DNA from: an uncultured Kiloniella sp.
GTDB taxonomy: Bacteria; Pseudomonadota; Alphaproteobacteria; Kiloniellales; Kiloniellaceae
Length of the DNA stretch: 64,000 bases
Assembly: GCF_937128705.1 (NCBI RefSeq)
Contig: NZ_CAKZMP010000156.1
Location: 1,906 to 65,905 of the forward strand
Direction: 5' to 3'
The notes below the pieces were generated by a model. The model searched no databases. It saw nothing but the letters and a program-made list of their open reading frames with translations, and had not been told where the DNA came from. The position numbers and the translations under genes were made by a program. This document shows, piece by piece, positions 1,636 through 19,067 of the stretch. The first letter of the stretch is position 1, and each line of letters opens with the position of its first letter.

Positions 1636-2841
1636 TTAGTTCGTTAGCAACTTGTTGGGATTAACAGCTTCAGAGCCTTTGCGAATTTCAAAGTGAAGCT
1701 GAGGTTTGGAAACATTTCCTGTACTGCCAACTCTGGCAATATCCTGCCCTCTCTTCACGCGTTGGCCGCGTCCAACGAGTAATTGATCAGTATGGGCATA
1801 GGCTGTTACCCATCCATCAGAATGCTTGATCAGTAGCATTTGGCCAAAGCCTTTCAACTCACTCCCCGCATAAACAACGACGCCATTTTCAGCTGCTTTT
1901 ACAGACGTTCCTCTACGTGCAGCAATATTAATACCATCATTATGTATTCCGCCTTCTTTAGCACCAAAGGAAGAAATCACCTTTCCCTTAACTGGTCGTA
2001 AGAAATTGCTGAATGATCGGGGTAACGGCTTGGGAACCGGGCCGGTGAAGTTTTTAGGACTGGCAGGAATAGCGCTTCGAACAGGTGTTTTAGTCGAGGT
2101 CTTCGGAACTGCCGACGTAATATTTGGTGTATTGGTCGAAGGTGAAACACTTGCTGAACGTACCACATTATCTTGCCGTAATGCAGGAAGGTTCAAACGC
2201 TGCCCAACATACAGAGCATAAGGTGGATTGATTTTGTTAATCTTCACCAATGCTGTGGTTTCAACACCATACCGACGTGATATGCTGTAAAGCGTATCCC
2301 CGGCAATCACAACATGCTCTTTCGAAACCGGTAGCTTGATAGCCTGTCCAACCAATAGCTTATAAGGCGGGGACAAACGGTTCAGAATAATAAGTTCACG
2401 AATAGAAACCCGGCGTTTACGAGATATAGAATAGACCGTATCACCACGATTTACAGTGTATTGAGTGCTAGAAATTTCTGTCTGATTATTTACAGGTTGC
2501 GAAGTCGCTCTCGCTTGTTTTTGGATCACAGTCGTTGAACTGCTTTGCCTTACCTGCCTTCTCGGGTTTCTTTTGGGCAGAGGAATATTTTCAGGTAGCA
2601 ACGCCGGAATTGAAACACCTGCAACACGACCAGTCGTCTGCCCCGCTGTTGAAGGACGCGACGGCGGTGTTGGTTTTCTCTTGGGCAAAATTGACGGTGG
2701 ATAACTATAAACCGTCTGAGTTGGTGTTGATTTTTGTGTCGTTGTCGGAAAGGACGACGGATTGATCGTGCACCCGTACAGCCCTGCGCTTAACAGTAAA
2801 AATCCTAGTTTCAAAGTTGGTAAGCTGGTCCGATTAAACAT
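1636..2841 (-). CDS. nlpD: LysM-M23 lipoprotein (NlpD/DipM-like peptidoglycan hydrolase or activator)
   Basis: Lipoprotein signal ending LYGC, two LysM repeats (YTVNRGDTVYSIS, HVVIAGDTLYSIS), C-terminal M23 domain (HNDGINI, AYAH, QLHFEIR); downstream of pcm-surE. Confidence 0.9.
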   Translation of the reverse strand: MFNRTSLPTLKLGFLLLSAGLYGCTINPSSFPTTTQKSTPTQTVYSYPPSILPKRKPTPPSRPSTAGQTTGRVAGVSIPALLPENIPLPKRNPRRQVRQSSSTTVIQKQARATSQPVNNQTEISSTQYTVNRGDTVYSISRKRRVSIRELIILNRLSPPYKLLVGQAIKLPVSKEHVVIAGDTLYSISRRYGVETTALVKINKINPPYALYVGQRLNLPALRQDNVVRSASVSPSTNTPNITSAVPKTSTKTPVRSAIPASPKNFTGPVPKPLPRSFSNFLRPVKGKVISSFGAKEGGIHNDGINIAARRGTSVKAAENGVVVYAGSELKGFGQMLLIKHSDGWVTAYAHTDQLLVGRGQRVKRGQDIARVGSTGNVSKPQLHFEIRKGSEAVNPNKLLTN

Positions 2842-2887
2842 CAAATTAGTTACGAGCGTATTCCTGTACTAAAACCACCAAAGCCAA

Positions 2888-3529
2888 TTAATTGCCTTTT
2901 GGCATCCCGTGAACAAGAGGCACAAACCGTACCTCACCAAGGTTCTCATGATCAAACCCGTTTTCTGTCCGCGTAATCCTGATCAATTCCTGATTATTAC
3001 CTTGTGACCCCAACGGTAAAACCAGAATACCACCTATTGCCAGTTGCTCAAGCAGAGCTTCGGGAATTTCCTTTGGCGCGGCTGTGATAATTATGCGTTC
3101 AAACGGGGCTTGTTCTTTCCAACCCTTGTAACCATCACCCAACTTTGTGGTCACATTATGAAGACGCAGGTTTGTAAAACGTTCTTCTGCCTCCCCCAAT
3201 AGCTCACGATAGCGTTCGATCGTATAAACACGCCGACATAAACGTGACAAAATGGAAGCTTGATATCCAGATCCTGTACCAACCTCGAGAATCTTCATTC
3301 TTTTCGTTACGGAAAGAGCCTGTGTCATCATGGCGACGACTTGTGGTTGGCTCAGCGTTTGCCCTCTGCCAATTGGAAGTGCCATATTTTCATAGGACTG
3401 ATCCTGAAAAGGCCCGGGGACAAAAGCTTCTCTTGGAATACGCTCAATCGCGGAAAGGACGCCGGTATCAGAAATACCGCCGCGTCTCAATTCCATAATA
3501 AGTCTGATTTTGCGTGCTTCAAGACTCAT
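2888..3529 (-). CDS. pcm: Protein-L-isoaspartate O-methyltransferase
   Basis: LEVGTGSGYQ SAM-binding motif, APFERIIITAA, VRFVPL; surE-pcm-nlpD synteny. Confidence 0.95.
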   Translation of the reverse strand: MSLEARKIRLIMELRRGGISDTGVLSAIERIPREAFVPGPFQDQSYENMALPIGRGQTLSQPQVVAMMTQALSVTKRMKILEVGTGSGYQASILSRLCRRVYTIERYRELLGEAEERFTNLRLHNVTTKLGDGYKGWKEQAPFERIIITAAPKEIPEALLEQLAIGGILVLPLGSQGNNQELIRITRTENGFDHENLGEVRFVPLVHGMPKGN

Positions 3530-4314
3530 GGGAACAGAGTTTCCATCTTTGACAACAGACCTTTATCTGTCAGATCGTATTTCAAAGGCGTAACTGTAAT
3601 ATACCCCTCAGCAATCGCTGTCAGATCCGCATTCGGAATAGACGTGTGGTGACTGACAAACTGACCAACCCACAAATAAGGCCGGCCACTGGGGTCATTT
3701 CCTTCGACAACGGTTGTTCCCTCATCCCGATGCCCTTGGGCACAGACCTTGATGCCTTTGACTTTATCAGCGGGAATTCCCGGGAAGTTCACATTGAATA
3801 GCAGATTTCCAGGTTCATCCCACGTTGCGAGCTTGGTAATAACTTCAGGCGCAAACCTTGTAACGGTATCCCAATGAAAAAGACTTTCGTCCTTATCATC
3901 CGGCCTTAGACTAAGGGCAATGGACCGCGCGCCAAGAATGGCCCCCTCCATTGCCGCAGCCACCGTGCCGGAATAGATAACATCTTCACCCAGATTTGCC
4001 CCGACGTTCACCCCAGACAACACGATATCGGGTACCTTATCAGCCATTAGATACTTCATGGCCATCAGAACACAATCTGTTGGCGTGCCATCAATAGAGT
4101 AACGCTTGTCATCAAGCTTGCGTTCCCGCAAAGGGCGTCTCAAAGTAAGAGAATGACTGCTGGCCGACTGTTCAGATTCTGGCGCGACAACCCAGACGTC
4201 ATCGGATAATTGGCGGGATATTTCTTCTAAAACAGATAATCCTTTGGCGTGGATACCGTCATCGTTTGATAACAGTATCCGCGCATTTGTAAGGCTCTGT
4301 ATCGTCTTAGTCAT
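3526..4314 (-). CDS. surE: 5'/3'-nucleotidase SurE
   Basis: [37 protein letters not shown] motifs. Confidence 0.97.
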
Positions 4315-5584
4315 TCAGGAGGATACTTTCTTTGCCCCCCATGTATGGTCTAAGCACCTCGGGTACAGTAACGGAGCCATCAGCTTGCTGATAGTTTTCC
4401 ATAACGGCAATGAGACAGCGCCCAACTGCAACACCAGAGCCATTCAAAGTGTGTACAAAAGCAGGTTTCTTCGTTTCAGTAGATCTGAAACGCCCGTTCA
4501 TACGACGCGCCTGGAAATCACCACAGGTAGAACAGCTAGAAATTTCACGGTATGCATCCTGACCGGGCAACCAAACTTCGATATCATAAGTCTTACGCGC
4601 ACCAAAGCCCATGTCACCTGTGCAAAGAACCACAACGCGATAATGCAGCCCCAGTTTCTTCAACACATCTTCCGCGCAACTTGTCATACGCTCGAGCTCA
4701 TCATCGGATTTATCCGGGTGAACAACAGAAACCATTTCCACCTTATCAAACTGATGTTGGCGCAGCATACCACGAGTATCACGCCCGGCAGAGCCAGCCT
4801 CGGAACGGAAACAAGGGGTCAAAGCAGTCATTCGCTTTGGCAACTCATCTTCCTTGAGGATCTCGCCAGCAACCGTATTCGTCAATGGCACTTCAGCTGT
4901 TGGAATAAGCCAGAAACCTTCTTCAGTCTTGAAAGAATCTTCTGCAAATTTTGGGAGCTGACCCGTACCATACATCACGTGATCACGCACAAGAACTGGT
5001 GGTATCACTTCGGTATAGCCGTGTTCATCGATATGCATATCAATCATGAACTGTGACAAAGCACGGTAAAGACGAGCCACACTTCCTTTAAGAACAACAA
5101 ATCGGGATCCAGAAAGCTTCGCCGCCAGCTCAAAGTCCATTTCGCCCAGCTCTTCGCCCAGCTCAAAATGCTGCTTTGCGTCAAAGCCCAGCTCAGGTTT
5201 GTCACCAACAGTGCGCACAAGAACATTATCGTCCTCGTCTTCACCAACAGGAACATCATCGTTTGGTCGGTTGGGAATACCGGCAAGGATTGTCTTAATC
5301 TGGTTACCAAGATCAGATTCGGCAGTCTCTTTTTCAGACATACCTTCTTTGATACCCGCGACCTCTGCCATTAGATCCGATGCATCTTCGCCATTGCGCT
5401 TGGCAATACCAATCTGTTTTGATGCTTCGTTACGGCGCGCTTGCATTTCTTGTAGCTCAGCCTGAAGCGCACGATGCTGTTTGTCCAGATCCAGAATCTG
5501 GGCAGACATTGGTTCCATATTACGGCGCTTAAGCCCTTCGTCAAAAACTTCAGGGGTTTCACGGATCAACTTTAGGTCATACAT
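4307..5584 (-). CDS. serS: Serine--tRNA ligase
   Basis: N-terminal coiled coil, [40 protein letters not shown]; likely ATG at 5584 (ORF track begins at 5623). Confidence 0.98.
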
Positions 5585-5731
5585 AGGTATCTCTGTCCTT
5601 GTACTGAGAGAGACAAAATTCAATTAAAACGATATACTTATCAACAGAGTATACTCAACGCTGAGATAAGCAAAATCTCGATGCAAAGGCCTTAAAGGGT
5701 TCGGTATCAACTGTGTAGCGAATGGACGACC

Positions 5732-6541
5732 TTAGTCAGGGGTTACGTCAGTCGACTCAGCTTCTTCTTCCTCGGCACGTTTGCGTTCTACCATTTTGGC
5801 CATCAGGATCGACACTTCGTAAAGAAGTACAATCGGAATAGCCAAGGCCAACTGGCTCAATGGATCTGGCGGGGTAAATATTGCAGCAACAATAAAGACA
5901 CCAACAATCGCATATTTACGCTTTTCCGCCATCCCTTTCGACGATGCAATGCCGACTTTTGCCAACAATGTCATCAAGACGGGTAGCTGAAAACAGAGAC
6001 CAAAAGCAAATATCAACTTCATCATCAGCGAGAAGTATTCATTAACTTTGGCTTCCAGCTCAATAGCAATTGAGCTGTCAGTACCTTCAACCTGAAACGC
6101 AAGAAAGAACTCTGCGGCAAGCGGGAAGATCACAAAATAAACCAAAGCCCCACCGACAAAAAACAAAATCGGCGACGCGATCAAAAACGGTGCAAAGGCA
6201 GATTTCTCGTTTTTGTATAAACCCGGCGCAACAAACAACCAGATCTGAGACAGAAAGATTGGACAGCTGATGAAAGCCCCAAAAAAGAACGCGACTTTCA
6301 CATAGGTAAAAAAGACCTCTGTCAAATCAGTAAAGATCAATCGTTGCTGACGATCACTGACCGAATTTTCGCGCATCACTTCTGCCAAAGGGGCAGCAAG
6401 ATATTCAAAAAGCTGTTCAGCAAAAGCAAAACAGGCCAAAAAAGCGACCAACAGAGTGACGACACTCCATAATAATCGCTTTCTGAGTTCAATCAGATGC
6501 TCCAGTAATGGCATCTTCTGTTCTTCGGTTGTATCACTCAC
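5732..6541 (-). CDS. tatC: Twin-arginine translocase subunit TatC
   Basis: MPLLEHLIELRKRL, six TM segments, FTPPDPLSQ. Confidence 0.97.
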   Translation of the reverse strand: MSDTTEEQKMPLLEHLIELRKRLLWSVVTLLVAFLACFAFAEQLFEYLAAPLAEVMRENSVSDRQQRLIFTDLTEVFFTYVKVAFFFGAFISCPIFLSQIWLFVAPGLYKNEKSAFAPFLIASPILFFVGGALVYFVIFPLAAEFFLAFQVEGTDSSIAIELEAKVNEYFSLMMKLIFAFGLCFQLPVLMTLLAKVGIASSKGMAEKRKYAIVGVFIVAAIFTPPDPLSQLALAIPIVLLYEVSILMAKMVERKRAEEEEAESTDVTPD

Positions 6542-16202: not shown

Positions 16203-19067
16203 TTGTATCTTTTATGGCGGTGCTGGGGTGCTTTTGTAGCACTCTTAATTACAATATTATCTGTTCTTACAGTACTATCCATTCTGCAGCATAACTCTGT
16301 ATTATCCAACCTTGTCCAACAACGAATAGCCGTTGTTGTCGAATCAGTAGACGATGCTCTGTCTAAAAATATTGAAAATGCCCCTTCTGTTTCAAATCTC
16401 CCAAATGCGCGACAGATATTGACGCAAGCAAAAGCGCTTGACCCTGACATCAACGCAATCCACATTTTGAACACAAGTGGTAAAATCGTTCACTCAACGG
16501 ACAGAACACAACCATTAAATCTCTCACAGGACGAAATAAACCTGAAGAGAACGAGTAAAAATGAGACATGGAATAAAGAAACCGATAAACAATTTTTTAG
16601 TTACAAAAAAATAACCAATACGAGTGGCCAGTTAATTGGAACTGTCGCAGCAATTTACCCTAAAACTAGCTATAATATCACCGTCGCAAATTTTACCTTC
16701 ATCGTGATAATTACAGCTCTAATTTTACTTCTACTATTTTCAGTGATTGGATTTATTGTCCTCAGGCTCCGACTTTCAGAAGCTGTAAAATCGGGTAATT
16801 TGCTTAAACAATGGTACAAAGCCCGATCTGTTGCCCCGACAGTCTATCAGATCCCAGAAGGCGCAAAGAAAGAACAAGTTAATCCGCAATTTATGGAGCT
16901 TCTAGAGCATCTGAACGCCGCGGATAAAAATTATGACCAAATAGATTCTCAATTAAAAAAATGGGAATCAGAGTGCCAAAACAAAAACGCTCCTGCGCCC
17001 GGAGTATTACCTCAGAAGATTGTGATGAGCCCTCTTTTGGATATACGTTTGGGTATTGCTTACCAACGAAAGGTATATACTTGGATTATCGGCTTGATTA
17101 TTGCTGCCACACTGTCTTTAGGCTTTGTCACATACACTTCTGTCAATGCCTCTCTCAAACCAGAAATGGTAAAGCGAACCGACCTTATTTCGCAAATAGC
17201 AACAAACAACATTCAACAAAATGTCACCGCTGGAATTCCCATAGAAAGCATAAGTAACCTTGAAGAAGATTTAAACAACACCCTCACCCACTTCCCCGAG
17301 ATATCCTTTTTGGGTGTTGCGACAGGAAAGTTTATTTTCACTGCTGGTGATTGGCAAAATCCATTTTATTCAACGACACAAGACGCACGTAAGCTCCCCA
17401 TCTACCCTATCGTCTCAGATGAAGAGAACGTTGGATACATTATCATTCGACCAGATGTAAATTATATCGCCAAGCAATTTCGTGAAGTTGCATTGGACCT
17501 AACTGTCATCGTTCTTGTTGTCTTACTTTTTGCTTACGAGGTCATTGTACTCGTAATGACGATGTCACTGAGCTCGCCCCTAAACAGACTTAAACAGCTA
17601 TCAGAAATGCAAGCCAACGGCGACTATTCCAGTGTTATTATTCCCCGACGCGGAAACTTTACAGAATATTTAATTACCCGACTATCAAACAGGACGCATA
17701 GTATTCATAAAAGATATCGAGCTTTGGCAGCATATCTAAAAACCACAAAAGCTAAGGGTTTCTTTCAAGAAGAAATGACCTCTATGGCTGATAAATTTAA
17801 ACTACCAACCAAAGGACCTTTGACACTAACTTATCCCTATAAAAACGATATTCGGCTTGCTCTCTTTTTATTCGCTGCCGCAGATGAACTCGCTTTATCT
17901 TTCTTCCCCTTGTTCACGAGAGCCGCAGAAAATCCCTTAACATGGATTGATCCGGCTATTGTCATTTCCTTGCCAATCGCTGGATATCTGATTGCTTATC
18001 TTTTTGCGGCCCCTTTTGCCCGGTCACTAACAGGTAAATGGGGTCACAAAAAAATGATCCTCGGGGCTCTAATTTTTATTTTCCTGTCAAACTTTGGGAT
18101 GTTTTTTGCCACCAATGTATTGGAAATCATTTTCTGGCGATCTTTGGGGGGCATAGGATATGCCTTTGCCGTACTTGCTTGTCAGGATTATGTAATTGAC
18201 TACGAACCCCGTGGTGAACGAACCAAATCACTTGGTCAGTTCTCAGCTGCCCTTTTTGCCGGAATTTTTGCAGGTACAGCTTTGGGGGGCGTTCTTGCAG
18301 ATCGATTTGGAACATCCATCGCTTTTATGTTCAGTGCTTTTCTTGTTGTTATATCCGCCATATTGCTTACCCGGATGATTCCCCCGGGGTTAAATACGAA
18401 AACAAAAGAAGAAGCTCCTCTGCGGTTCAAGTCCATAGCAGCATCCCTTAAAAATCCTCGTTTTTTTGCAGTGTGTATGGGGCTTGCTGTTCCACAAAGC
18501 CTTATGGACCAGGTTTTTATATCCTATCTCTTTTCATTACAGCTTGACGCGCTTGATGCCTCAACCGCAGATATAGCCCGACTTTTAATGGTTTACTTCT
18601 TTATGATAATGCTTTCGGGTACTTTATTAGGATGGCTAACCAACAGTAAAATAAGCGAAAGCTCTATTGCAGTGACAGGCTCCCTGATCACGGCTGCAGG
18701 TCTCATACTCACAGCATTTATGCCTTCGCAATGGACTATGTTAATCGCAGCTGCAAGCACCGGTTTTGGCCACGGCCTGCTTCGAGGCCCACAAGTTGAG
18801 CTTACGATGAAATTGGCAGAAGGAGAGCTAAAGCATTTGGGGTCAAATTCTGTCCTTGGCGCTCTACGTTTATTTGAAAGATGTGGCAGTATTCTTGGCC
18901 TATTGATAATTGCTGCAATAGCAGGATATTGGGGATTACCAACTGCCATCTCATCAATAGGGGTTATCATTTTAGGAGGCTTAGTGATTTTCGTTGTTTA
19001 TTACATCGGCACTAATTTCATTGATTTTTTAAACAAAAGAAAACTATCTTCGGAATATGAATCTTGA
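16203..19067 (+). CDS. 954-aa membrane protein: two TM-periplasmic(Cache-like)-TM modules plus a HAMP-like segment fused to a C-terminal MFS transporter
   Basis: Hydrophobic segments at aa ~8-28, ~164-187, ~291-311 and ~430-455; HAMP-like SPLNRLKQLSEMQANGDYS; MFS from aa ~549 with WRSLGGIG, AGIFAGTALGG and GVLADRFG motifs; TTG start preceded by a G8 run. Confidence 0.8.
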   Translation: MYLLWRCWGAFVALLITILSVLTVLSILQHNSVLSNLVQQRIAVVVESVDDALSKNIENAPSVSNLPNARQILTQAKALDPDINAIHILNTSGKIVHSTDRTQPLNLSQDEINLKRTSKNETWNKETDKQFFSYKKITNTSGQLIGTVAAIYPKTSYNITVANFTFIVIITALILLLLFSVIGFIVLRLRLSEAVKSGNLLKQWYKARSVAPTVYQIPEGAKKEQVNPQFMELLEHLNAADKNYDQIDSQLKKWESECQNKNAPAPGVLPQKIVMSPLLDIRLGIAYQRKVYTWIIGLIIAATLSLGFVTYTSVNASLKPEMVKRTDLISQIATNNIQQNVTAGIPIESISNLEEDLNNTLTHFPEISFLGVATGKFIFTAGDWQNPFYSTTQDARKLPIYPIVSDEENVGYIIIRPDVNYIAKQFREVALDLTVIVLVVLLFAYEVIVLVMTMSLSSPLNRLKQLSEMQANGDYSSVIIPRRGNFTEYLITRLSNRTHSIHKRYRALAAYLKTTKAKGFFQEEMTSMADKFKLPTKGPLTLTYPYKNDIRLALFLFAAADELALSFFPLFTRAAENPLTWIDPAIVISLPIAGYLIAYLFAAPFARSLTGKWGHKKMILGALIFIFLSNFGMFFATNVLEIIFWRSLGGIGYAFAVLACQDYVIDYEPRGERTKSLGQFSAALFAGIFAGTALGGVLADRFGTSIAFMFSAFLVVISAILLTRMIPPGLNTKTKEEAPLRFKSIAASLKNPRFFAVCMGLAVPQSLMDQVFISYLFSLQLDALDASTADIARLLMVYFFMIMLSGTLLGWLTNSKISESSIAVTGSLITAAGLILTAFMPSQWTMLIAAASTGFGHGLLRGPQVELTMKLAEGELKHLGSNSVLGALRLFERCGSILGLLIIAAIAGYWGLPTAISSIGVIILGGLVIFVVYYIGTNFIDFLNKRKLSSEYES

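Follow-up and report, generated by a model that had tools for sequence, protein, structure and literature searches.

A Kiloniella protein that joins two periplasmic sensor modules and a divergent HAMP segment to an MFS carrier is an SBP-orphaned member of a widespread family linked to PF04392 binding proteins

Several bacterial receptors, among them LuxP-LuxQ, TorT-TorS, ChvE-VirA and NspS-MbaA, have an established layout in which a transmembrane (TM) helix, a periplasmic PAS/PDC-type domain and a second TM helix lead to a cytoplasmic relay, and these receptors are paired with a co-encoded orphan substrate-binding protein (SBP) outside any ATP-binding cassette (ABC) transporter. In a second group of systems, comprising the CbrA SLC5-kinase, UhpC-UhpB, DctA/DcuB-DcuS and LysP-CadC, a carrier is coupled to a signalling module, and there it is the carrier that informs the kinase or regulator. 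We know of no studied bacterial example in which an extracellular receptor module directly and allosterically controls a secondary transporter, and, to our knowledge, the outputs for which HAMP signalling is understood are all enzymes or chemoreceptors (kinases, chemoreceptor tips, cyclases and phosphatases). Here we describe a gene in a 64,000-nucleotide stretch of an uncultured Kiloniella sp. (contig NZ_CAKZMP010000156.1, positions 1,906 to 65,905; hereafter the window) whose product carries two periplasmic sensor modules, each apparently analogous in layout to those of the LuxPQ-type receptors, followed by a divergent HAMP segment and a complete carrier domain of the major facilitator superfamily (MFS). 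In its relatives an orphan SBP is usually encoded alongside, as it is for those receptors, but the window genome has lost the partner gene.

The architecture is that of a sizeable and widespread family and not of a singleton. An exhaustive hidden Markov model (HMM) search with an alignment of the N-terminal 548 residues as query, counted in protein cluster representatives, matched 2343 clusters at E≤1e-3, 757 at E≤1e-10 and 119 at E≤1e-30, overturning the picture of a tiny family given by a word-based search that had returned only 9 proteins. Carriers of the module make up 3 of 300 genomes drawn evenly from the phylum (1%) and 15 of 61 in the window's order. Open-access papers and preprints yielded no paper on a HAMP-MFS or PF04392-MFS architecture; the protein is built from known parts, in a family for which we found no description in the literature searched. 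When the best 150 cluster representatives were classified with our own HMMs for module 1, module 2 and the MFS domain, 44 were complete fused proteins (about 770-1005 aa) and 41 were complete proteins consisting of module 2, HAMP and MFS (about 650-720 aa), alongside fragments and numerous proteins that consist of module 1 on its own (about 250-270 aa). In every complete homologue checked, MFS_1 is the sole domain after the HAMP segment, and none of them has a kinase, cyclase or methyl-accepting chemotaxis protein output domain, a pattern consistent with the suggestion, made in the original prediction from the window sequence, that the transporter may itself be the output of the sensor.

That prediction also held that the protein may be a fusion of two ancestral genes, and the split forms, which pair a protein of ~260 aa with one of ~650-720 aa, support it. 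At locus L007, the genes for a 257-aa protein and a 717-aa module-2-HAMP-MFS protein share 4 nt at the start of the latter, and the smaller product is homologous to module 1, a relationship visible by profile comparison only (hhalign probability 96.5%, E 7.8e-10; no match by BLASTP). The larger partners in split pairs begin near M275 of the window protein, the internal ATG at 17025, which is where the fusion boundary would lie. In a tree built on the module-2-plus-MFS region of 44 fused and 41 split proteins, rows of either kind are interspersed, and the starred branches force at least 17 changes of form, although a few of the split rows (e.g., P0149 and P0073) are probably truncated or misclassified; 24 of the 27 rows in the window protein's own clade are fused. 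Such interleaving suggests that both halves act in one complex at 1:1, as repeated fusion and fission would then be expected. Separately, one 1003-aa MFS protein (P0010) carries ~600 additional N-terminal residues without a match to either module, and may represent another type of extended MFS carrier.

A second regularity of the family is its link to an SBP. In six of seven metagenome or genome loci, the carrier gene adjoins an orphan SBP gene of family PF04392 (ABC_sub_bind). Four of these SBP genes run in the direction of the carrier gene (three downstream of it, that of L007 upstream) and two are convergent with it; neither a permease nor an ATPase gene of the ABC type was found near them. 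Among species-representative genomes of the order, 10 of the 14 that encode the carrier have the SBP gene next to it: G002 and G009 of Kiloniella, together with every one of the eight carriers outside that genus, none of which has another PF04392 gene. The linked SBPs constitute one orthologous group (50-65% mutual identity; 32-40% to the SBP of L007), all have an N-terminal signal-peptide-like segment, and they are distantly related to PF04392 structures in PDB (3lkv, 6hni and 3lft; E about 1e-17). We lean, with some reserve, towards a reading in which a periplasmic signal, normally the docking of this SBP on module 1, controls a carrier resembling the DHA1 drug:H+ antiporters through the HAMP segment, the window copy being an SBP-orphaned variant of that arrangement.

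Alternatively, the family could be an SBP-dependent secondary importer, a third kind beside the tripartite ATP-independent periplasmic (TRAP) and tripartite tricarboxylate (TTT) transporters. The periplasmic domains would then serve only to dock the SBP while its ligand passes to the MFS pore, the HAMP-like part would be a structural spacer, and the carrier of the window genome would import at lower affinity without the SBP or through another binding protein. The linkage to the SBP is indeed tight and near-universal, and neither permease nor ATPase genes of the ABC type accompany it (by comparison, the classical PF04392 gene of the window genome lies in an ABC operon). Structurally characterised PF04392 proteins have aromatic amino acids, which are nutrients, as their ligands (L-Trp, L-Tyr and L-Phe; PMC10443332). 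We nevertheless consider an importer unlikely. The MFS domain resembles drug:H+ antiporters in both sequence and fold and has a near-complete motif C, a spacer would hardly account for a HAMP conserved to the point of invariant Pro, Gly and Arg residues, and the carrier was retained and stayed highly conserved after the SBP was lost.

As an observation on the SBPs themselves, five of the linked proteins (L002:6495-7544, L003:3161-4162, L004:3397-4452 on the minus strand, L005:5196-6212, and L006:8816-9820 on the minus strand) share a Cys-x-x-x-Cys, W-x-x-C-E-[ED]-x-C, just past the signal peptide. It is missing at that position in the ABC-type and kinase-linked PF04392 proteins of the window genome, and could correspond to a disulfide or to a metal/redox site.

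The window copy is an atypical, SBP-orphaned member of this family: of the trio, the module-2-HAMP-MFS core and module 1 are present in fused form, and the cognate SBP gene is missing. It is absent from the window genome (97.5% complete), from G011 (100% complete, with a carrier 97% identical), from G001 (K. antarctica) and from G005, and tblastn found no SBP remnant in the window or in the 425-bp gap that K. antarctica has at the place expected for the gene, where the flanks equal those of the SBP-bearing locus L002 (AHSA1, an ArsR-type helix-turn-helix protein and an iron-siderophore-type ABC system). Of the two other PF04392 genes in the window genome, one belongs to a classical ABC operon and the other adjoins a HAMP histidine kinase gene; the products of both are ~24% identical to the linked SBPs. 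On the protein tree of the Kiloniella clade, presence (+) and absence (-) of the SBP are distributed as (G005-, (L002+, (G002+, (G001-, (P0002, window-, G011-))))), a pattern implying at least two independent losses.

Two further loci deserve mention. Elsewhere in the window's own genome (L009, contig C257), a second orphan PF04392 gene at 1369-2439 (E 1.7e-23) lies directly upstream of a TM-HAMP-HisKA-HATPase kinase gene at 2449-3927, with DUF1835 adjacent, and the pair looks like an SBP-dependent two-component sensor. The kinase was considered as a paralogue of the sensor modules and rejected, as the only region it has in common with modules 1 and 2 is the HAMP. In K. antarctica (L001), a 266-aa membrane or secreted protein (2742-3542) and a HAMP-PAS_7-HisKA-HATPase kinase (3552-5798) are encoded directly upstream of the carrier, with DUF1835 further up; the 266-aa protein has no Pfam match, and Pfam and BLASTP rule it out as a PF04392 SBP. 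The occurrence of DUF1835 both here and beside the L009 pair is a hint that the two loci were once one neighbourhood.

Loss of the SBP is accompanied by a change confined largely to one part of the protein. We defined invariant positions from five outgroup SBP-bearing proteins and counted changes at these positions in each protein of the Kiloniella clade (Table 1). A clear contrast between SBP-bearing and SBP-less proteins was found in the module-1 periplasmic domain only; in module 2 it was slight, and in the MFS domain there was none. Within module 1, the loop motif LGLPxSxxRNA, which follows the first long helix, is intact in every SBP-bearing sequence, and the motif's Arg is substituted in each of the four that have no SBP. 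These patterns provide a lead, not a proof, that the module-1 periplasmic domain is the part whose constraint depends on the SBP.

Table 1. Changes at family-invariant positions in Kiloniella-clade proteins with and without a linked SBP.
Region	Invariant positions	G002 (SBP)	L002 (SBP)	G001 (no SBP)	G005 (no SBP)	G011 (no SBP)	Window (no SBP)
Module-1 periplasmic domain	27	2	2	5	6	13	13
Module-2 periplasmic domain	40	10	9	12	13	14	14
HAMP plus connector	24	9	8	9	8	11	12
MFS domain	126	16	18	16	17	18	18

The decay of module 1 raises the question of whether the whole gene is a functionless relic on its way to becoming a pseudogene after loss of the SBP. Such a view could draw on the missing SBP, on the 13 of 27 invariant module-1 positions that have changed, and on the disrupted copy in another Kiloniella genome, G009. 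We regard it as very improbable, because the 954-codon frame is intact in the window, G011, P0002 and G001, and because, compared with G011, the window gene has ratios of nonsynonymous to synonymous substitution rates (dN/dS) within 0.0-0.2 for all its domains. The periplasmic domain of module 1 is at 0.20 and that of module 2 at 0.12; module 2 taken together with HAMP gives 0.06, and the MFS domain about 0. These values rest on one pair, for which dS is about 0.13-0.21, as dS was saturated in all others. The MFS domain is the most constrained part of the protein, with 87% identity to G001 besides its dN/dS of about 0 against G011, and the substitution pattern indicates that purifying selection on the gene persists. 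With the SBP input gone and module 2, HAMP and carrier strongly constrained, the window protein probably works as an SBP-independent carrier, which may still be regulated through module 2 by direct ligand binding or a membrane signal. The G009 copy (L016, 227-871 and 1507-3693) is an observation apart: although its cognate SBP gene is adjacent, module 1 lies in another frame ~636 bp from the rest, and the module-2-HAMP-MFS frame contains an in-frame TAG, so that it is either a pseudogene or a recent split.

The N-terminal half has the appearance of a receptor dimer written into one chain. Hydropathy and a full-length AlphaFold (AF2) model (mean predicted local distance difference test score, pLDDT, 73; predicted TM-score, pTM, 0.69) agree on a layout of 4 + 12 membrane helices, bearing out the predicted twofold TM-periplasmic-TM arrangement and total of ~16 TM segments (Table 2). 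Both cytoplasmic stretches contain 16 Lys plus Arg residues and are the most basic parts of the protein, which is consistent with an N-in topology with the N-terminus of the MFS domain in the cytoplasm, as is usual. Both periplasmic domains are modelled with a long helix that leads into a sheet of four or five strands flanked by helices, the whole held between two TM helices; in module 1, a long helix, a short helix and five strands are modelled with pLDDT of about 76-87 except in loops 51-70 and 101-120, and in module 2, G344, P346, P365, E366, G371, G375, G382 and I413 are invariant in the family. The N-terminal half was also modelled separately (pLDDT 77.8), since Foldseek with the full-length model gave MFS matches only, and this model matched exclusively extracytoplasmic PAS/PDC/Cache sensors (E 1e-3 to 1e-1, probability about 1), led by WalK (4ywz and 3cwf, target TM-score, TMt, 0.73) and including KinD, CitA, DcuS and the sCache/dCache domains of chemoreceptors; a full-length WalK model was matched at E 1.5e-6. 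The earlier description of the modules as Cache-like therefore holds at the level of fold and fails at the level of profiles: no Pfam Cache or PAS profile matches the window protein, the sole related match being ArlS_N (E 0.091). NCBIfam gave a weak match to the WalK N-terminus covering aa 11-187, and a PDB sequence search with the module-1 profile returned only coiled-coil noise and a chance-level CcmD match to a TM segment.

The resemblance between the two modules, initially noted by eye, is real but weak, and by profile comparison they are paralogues. The family profiles align over 198 columns (hhalign E 8.3e-5, probability 61%), and the module-2 HMM also matches module-1 regions and stand-alone module-1 proteins over about 230 positions at E down to 2e-6. 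The alignment places aa 33-255 of module 1 on module 2 including its second TM helix and HAMP helices. Because it extends through the helices that follow the membrane, residues 186-282, which had been taken for a mere cytoplasmic linker, are better read as the paralogous HAMP-like helix-loop-helix of a second receptor half.

The segment after module 2 (aa 456-515) is, on profile and model evidence, best read as a divergent HAMP. The identification made from the window alone stands on its homologues, on the family profile, on the family-invariant signature residues Pro (P459, at the start of the first helix, AS1) and Gly (G473, at the start of the connector) and on the model, in which AS1 is continuous with TM4 and the second helix, AS2, spans 486-514; what it lacks is a score above the Pfam threshold for the window protein itself. 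Pfam HAMP does match one of eight family members (1.4e-4) and the distant fused proteins P0093 and P0099 (5e-10 and 5e-7), the family profile aligns residue for residue to the HAMP domains of Tsr and NarQ (E 0.07-0.6), and the NCBIfam models BaeS, CpxA and AtoS match the HAMP stretch of the window protein.

The carrier half is a complete MFS domain, with the features that had been quoted for it: D561-E562 in TM1, motif B with R646, and a motif C-like TM5. Pfam MFS_1 (PF07690) covers aa 553-872 at 6.7e-29 (101.3 bits against a cut-off of 33.4), and in NCBIfam drug-efflux models score best (TIGR00880 at 2.3e-19, followed by Tet(65) and MdtG). PDB sequence matches are to QacA, NorA, VMAT and EmrB, and Foldseek with the full model gives target TM-scores of about 0.8 to VMAT2, MdfA and NorA at 17-20% sequence identity. 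Twelve helices lie between aa 550 and 953 in the AF2 model, of which hydropathy detects 11; the helix at 843-873 is present in the model only. Motif C, which marks antiporters and not symporters, reads G678-X8-G687-X3-G691-T692-X2-G695-G696, with Thr replacing Pro. Motif A (GxLaDrxGrkxxl) is a signature of the superfamily and not a requirement for membership; it is LTGKWGHKK in the window protein, with Gly in place of Asp and the basic residues retained, and is canonical in more distant members (LADRxGxKR, as in LADRFGHRK and LADRIGIKR). On a related point, the acidic residues are gone throughout the Kiloniella clade from both the motif A of the N-terminal half and the equivalent loop of the C-terminal half (aa ~806-820), where distant family members retain a [DE]-[RKG] pair at both positions; since it affects proteins of the clade with and without an SBP alike, this change is not linked to the loss of the SBP.

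A carrier with such a motif A might no longer transport at all. The MFS domain could be a transceptor or co-sensor that reports its substrate or the state of the membrane to a partner such as a histidine kinase, much as UhpC acts with UhpB as co-sensor; the yeast sensors Snf3 and Rgt2 are comparable. Loss of the motif A acidic residues from both halves in the Kiloniella clade would be explained in this way, a PAS-HAMP histidine kinase gene does lie directly upstream of the carrier in K. antarctica, and the window genome has its separate pair of a PF04392 SBP and a HAMP kinase. We judge a transceptor role to be improbable, however, more so than an importer. No kinase or other signalling gene is conserved beside the family, motifs B and C, the acidic pair of TM1 and all 12 helices are conserved in what is the most constrained part of the protein, and more distant members have a canonical motif A.

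If a periplasmic signal does control the carrier through the HAMP, as we favour, the following course of events may be proposed. The two PDC-TM-HAMP halves would pair within one chain, like the subunits of a receptor dimer, to form one four-helix HAMP bundle, and an SBP, free or liganded, would dock on the two periplasmic domains, chiefly that of module 1. The ensuing HAMP rearrangement would travel through the connector FPYxND-I-R (D549, R551) into TM1 of the MFS domain and shift the inward/outward equilibrium of an exporter or antiporter working by alternating access, so that an outside signal would switch export or antiport directly, without a kinase or second messenger. In the most specific form of this proposal, the HAMP would drive the transporter directly, the family would consist of ligand-gated MFS carriers whose gate is an SBP-loaded, receptor-like pseudo-dimer, and the lineages that lost the SBP would mark the LGLPxSxxRNA loop as the docking site; this form is tentative, and we hold it with clearly less confidence than the general one.

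Several points weigh against control of the carrier by the sensor half. One is the absent acidic residue of motif A, a residue important for gating in studied MFS carriers; its absence in the Kiloniella clade is the chief internal argument that the carrier may cycle abnormally or not at all. The Pfam HAMP profile (PF00672) has no match in the window protein even at an E cut-off of 1-5. The connection between loss of the SBP and decay of module 1 is a lead that comes from two independent losses in one genus only. Finally, we found in the literature no transport, binding or signalling experiment on any member of the family.

The gene itself is a single uninterrupted frame, the sole long one at its place, as originally described. 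It starts with TTG, 7 nt downstream of a run of eight G, and the same full-length frame and N-terminus occur in P0002 (96% identity; named 'MFS transporter [Kiloniella sp.]' by NCBI), G011 (97%) and G001 (71%), with uninterrupted frames in further genomes and metagenomes at identities down to 37%. Retention of the frame in independent genomes excludes a frameshift or assembly artefact. The neighbouring genes in the window are of housekeeping type (a SPOR protein, argS, an HD-domain phosphohydrolase that is dGTPase-like, an erpA-like Fe-S assembly gene, an Exo_endo_phos nuclease, a rhomboid protein, ilvD and a TetR regulator) and give no functional hint, and promoter and terminator scans yielded matches at shuffle level only.

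Table 2. Features of the gene and its product, in window coordinates.
Feature	Position	Strand	Basis or remark
Whole gene, 954-aa sensor-sensor-HAMP-MFS fusion protein	16203..19067	+	Full-length orthologues with identical N-terminus
TM1, aa 10-28	16230..16286	+	Hydropathy 2.75; within model helix 2-54
Module-1 periplasmic domain, aa 29-166, PDC/PAS-like alpha/beta fold	16287..16700	+	AF2, Foldseek
Degenerate counterpart of LGLPxSxxRNA, NAPSVSNLPNA, aa 59-69	16377..16409	+	Candidate SBP contact site
TM2, aa 167-185	16701..16757	+	Hydropathy 3.15
Cytoplasmic helix-loop-helix after module 1, aa 186-282, then low-confidence spacer	16758..17048	+	AF2 helices 192-210 and 228-258
Internal ATG, M275	17025..17027	+	About where split-form module-2-HAMP-MFS proteins start
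TM3, aa 291-316	17073..17150	+	Hydropathy; within model helix 282-342
Module-2 periplasmic domain, aa 317-432, PDC/PAS-like	17151..17498	+	AF2, four strands plus helices; Foldseek sensor matches
TM4, aa 433-451	17499..17555	+	Hydropathy 2.97
Divergent HAMP, aa 456-515, invariant P459, G473, R482	17568..17747	+	Family profile, homologues, model
HAMP-to-MFS connector, aa 516-549, ending in conserved FPYxND-I-R	17748..17849	+	Invariant D549, R551
12-TM MFS domain, DHA1-like, aa 550-940	17850..19022	+	Pfam, NCBIfam, PDB sequence matches, Foldseek
Acidic pair D561-E562, MFS TM1	17883..17888	+	Sequence; family consensus AAADEL
Degenerate motif A, TM2-TM3 loop, LTGKWGHKK	18018..18053	+	Acidic residue replaced by Gly (alignment)
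Motif B, TM4 of MFS, WRSLGGIGY	18138..18164	+	R646 invariant
Motif C-like, TM5 of MFS, G-X8-G-X3-G-T-X2-G-G	18234..18290	+	G691, A693, G695, G696 invariant

Should sensor control of the carrier be confirmed, it would represent a new coupling of periplasmic binding proteins to secondary transport. The family is a compact system of one to three proteins in which one could ask how a four-helix HAMP bundle biases an alternating-access carrier, and it is equally suited to asking whether periplasmic binding proteins serve MFS carriers. To this the window adds the single-chain form and a natural experiment in SBP loss. The fused form sets the stoichiometry of the sensor halves at 1:1 and offers a single-chain construct for structural work, and the SBP-less Kiloniella lineages point to the module-1 domain and one short loop motif as the SBP interface.

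Set beside the known systems, the family differs from each in a different respect. Its output is a 12-TM MFS domain where that of the LuxPQ-type receptors is a kinase, cyclase or phosphodiesterase, and its 'dimer' consists of two paralogous halves, which the window protein holds in one chain in a genome that has lost the SBP. Residues 1-515 find their best structural and sequence resemblance in kinases of the WalK, NarQ and CitA-DcuS types, with N-terminal NCBIfam matches to the sensor kinases WalK, CztS, BaeS and CpxA that all lie below the curated cut-offs, but the likeness is limited to the input half, as the window protein has no DHp or HATPase domain. With the DHA1 drug:H+ antiporters (MdfA, NorA, MdtG and VMAT), the protein shares the 12-TM fold, the acidic residue of TM1, motif B and the motif C-like TM5, whereas it has a 548-aa N-terminal sensor extension and its clade does not have the acidic residue of motif A.

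The TRAP (DctPQM) and TTT (TctCBA) systems are likewise secondary carriers genetically coupled to a periplasmic SBP, but the membrane part here is MFS_1 and not DctM/DctQ or TctA/TctB, the SBP is of PF04392 and not DctP, TctC or TAXI, and between SBP and an antiporter-like carrier stands a receptor-type PDC-HAMP module. CbrA, UhpC-UhpB, DctA/DcuB-DcuS and LysP-CadC also couple a carrier to a signalling module, and by comparison the family is without a transcriptional output domain. Its domain order of sensor, HAMP and carrier suggests that information flows in the reverse direction, from the signalling module to the carrier.

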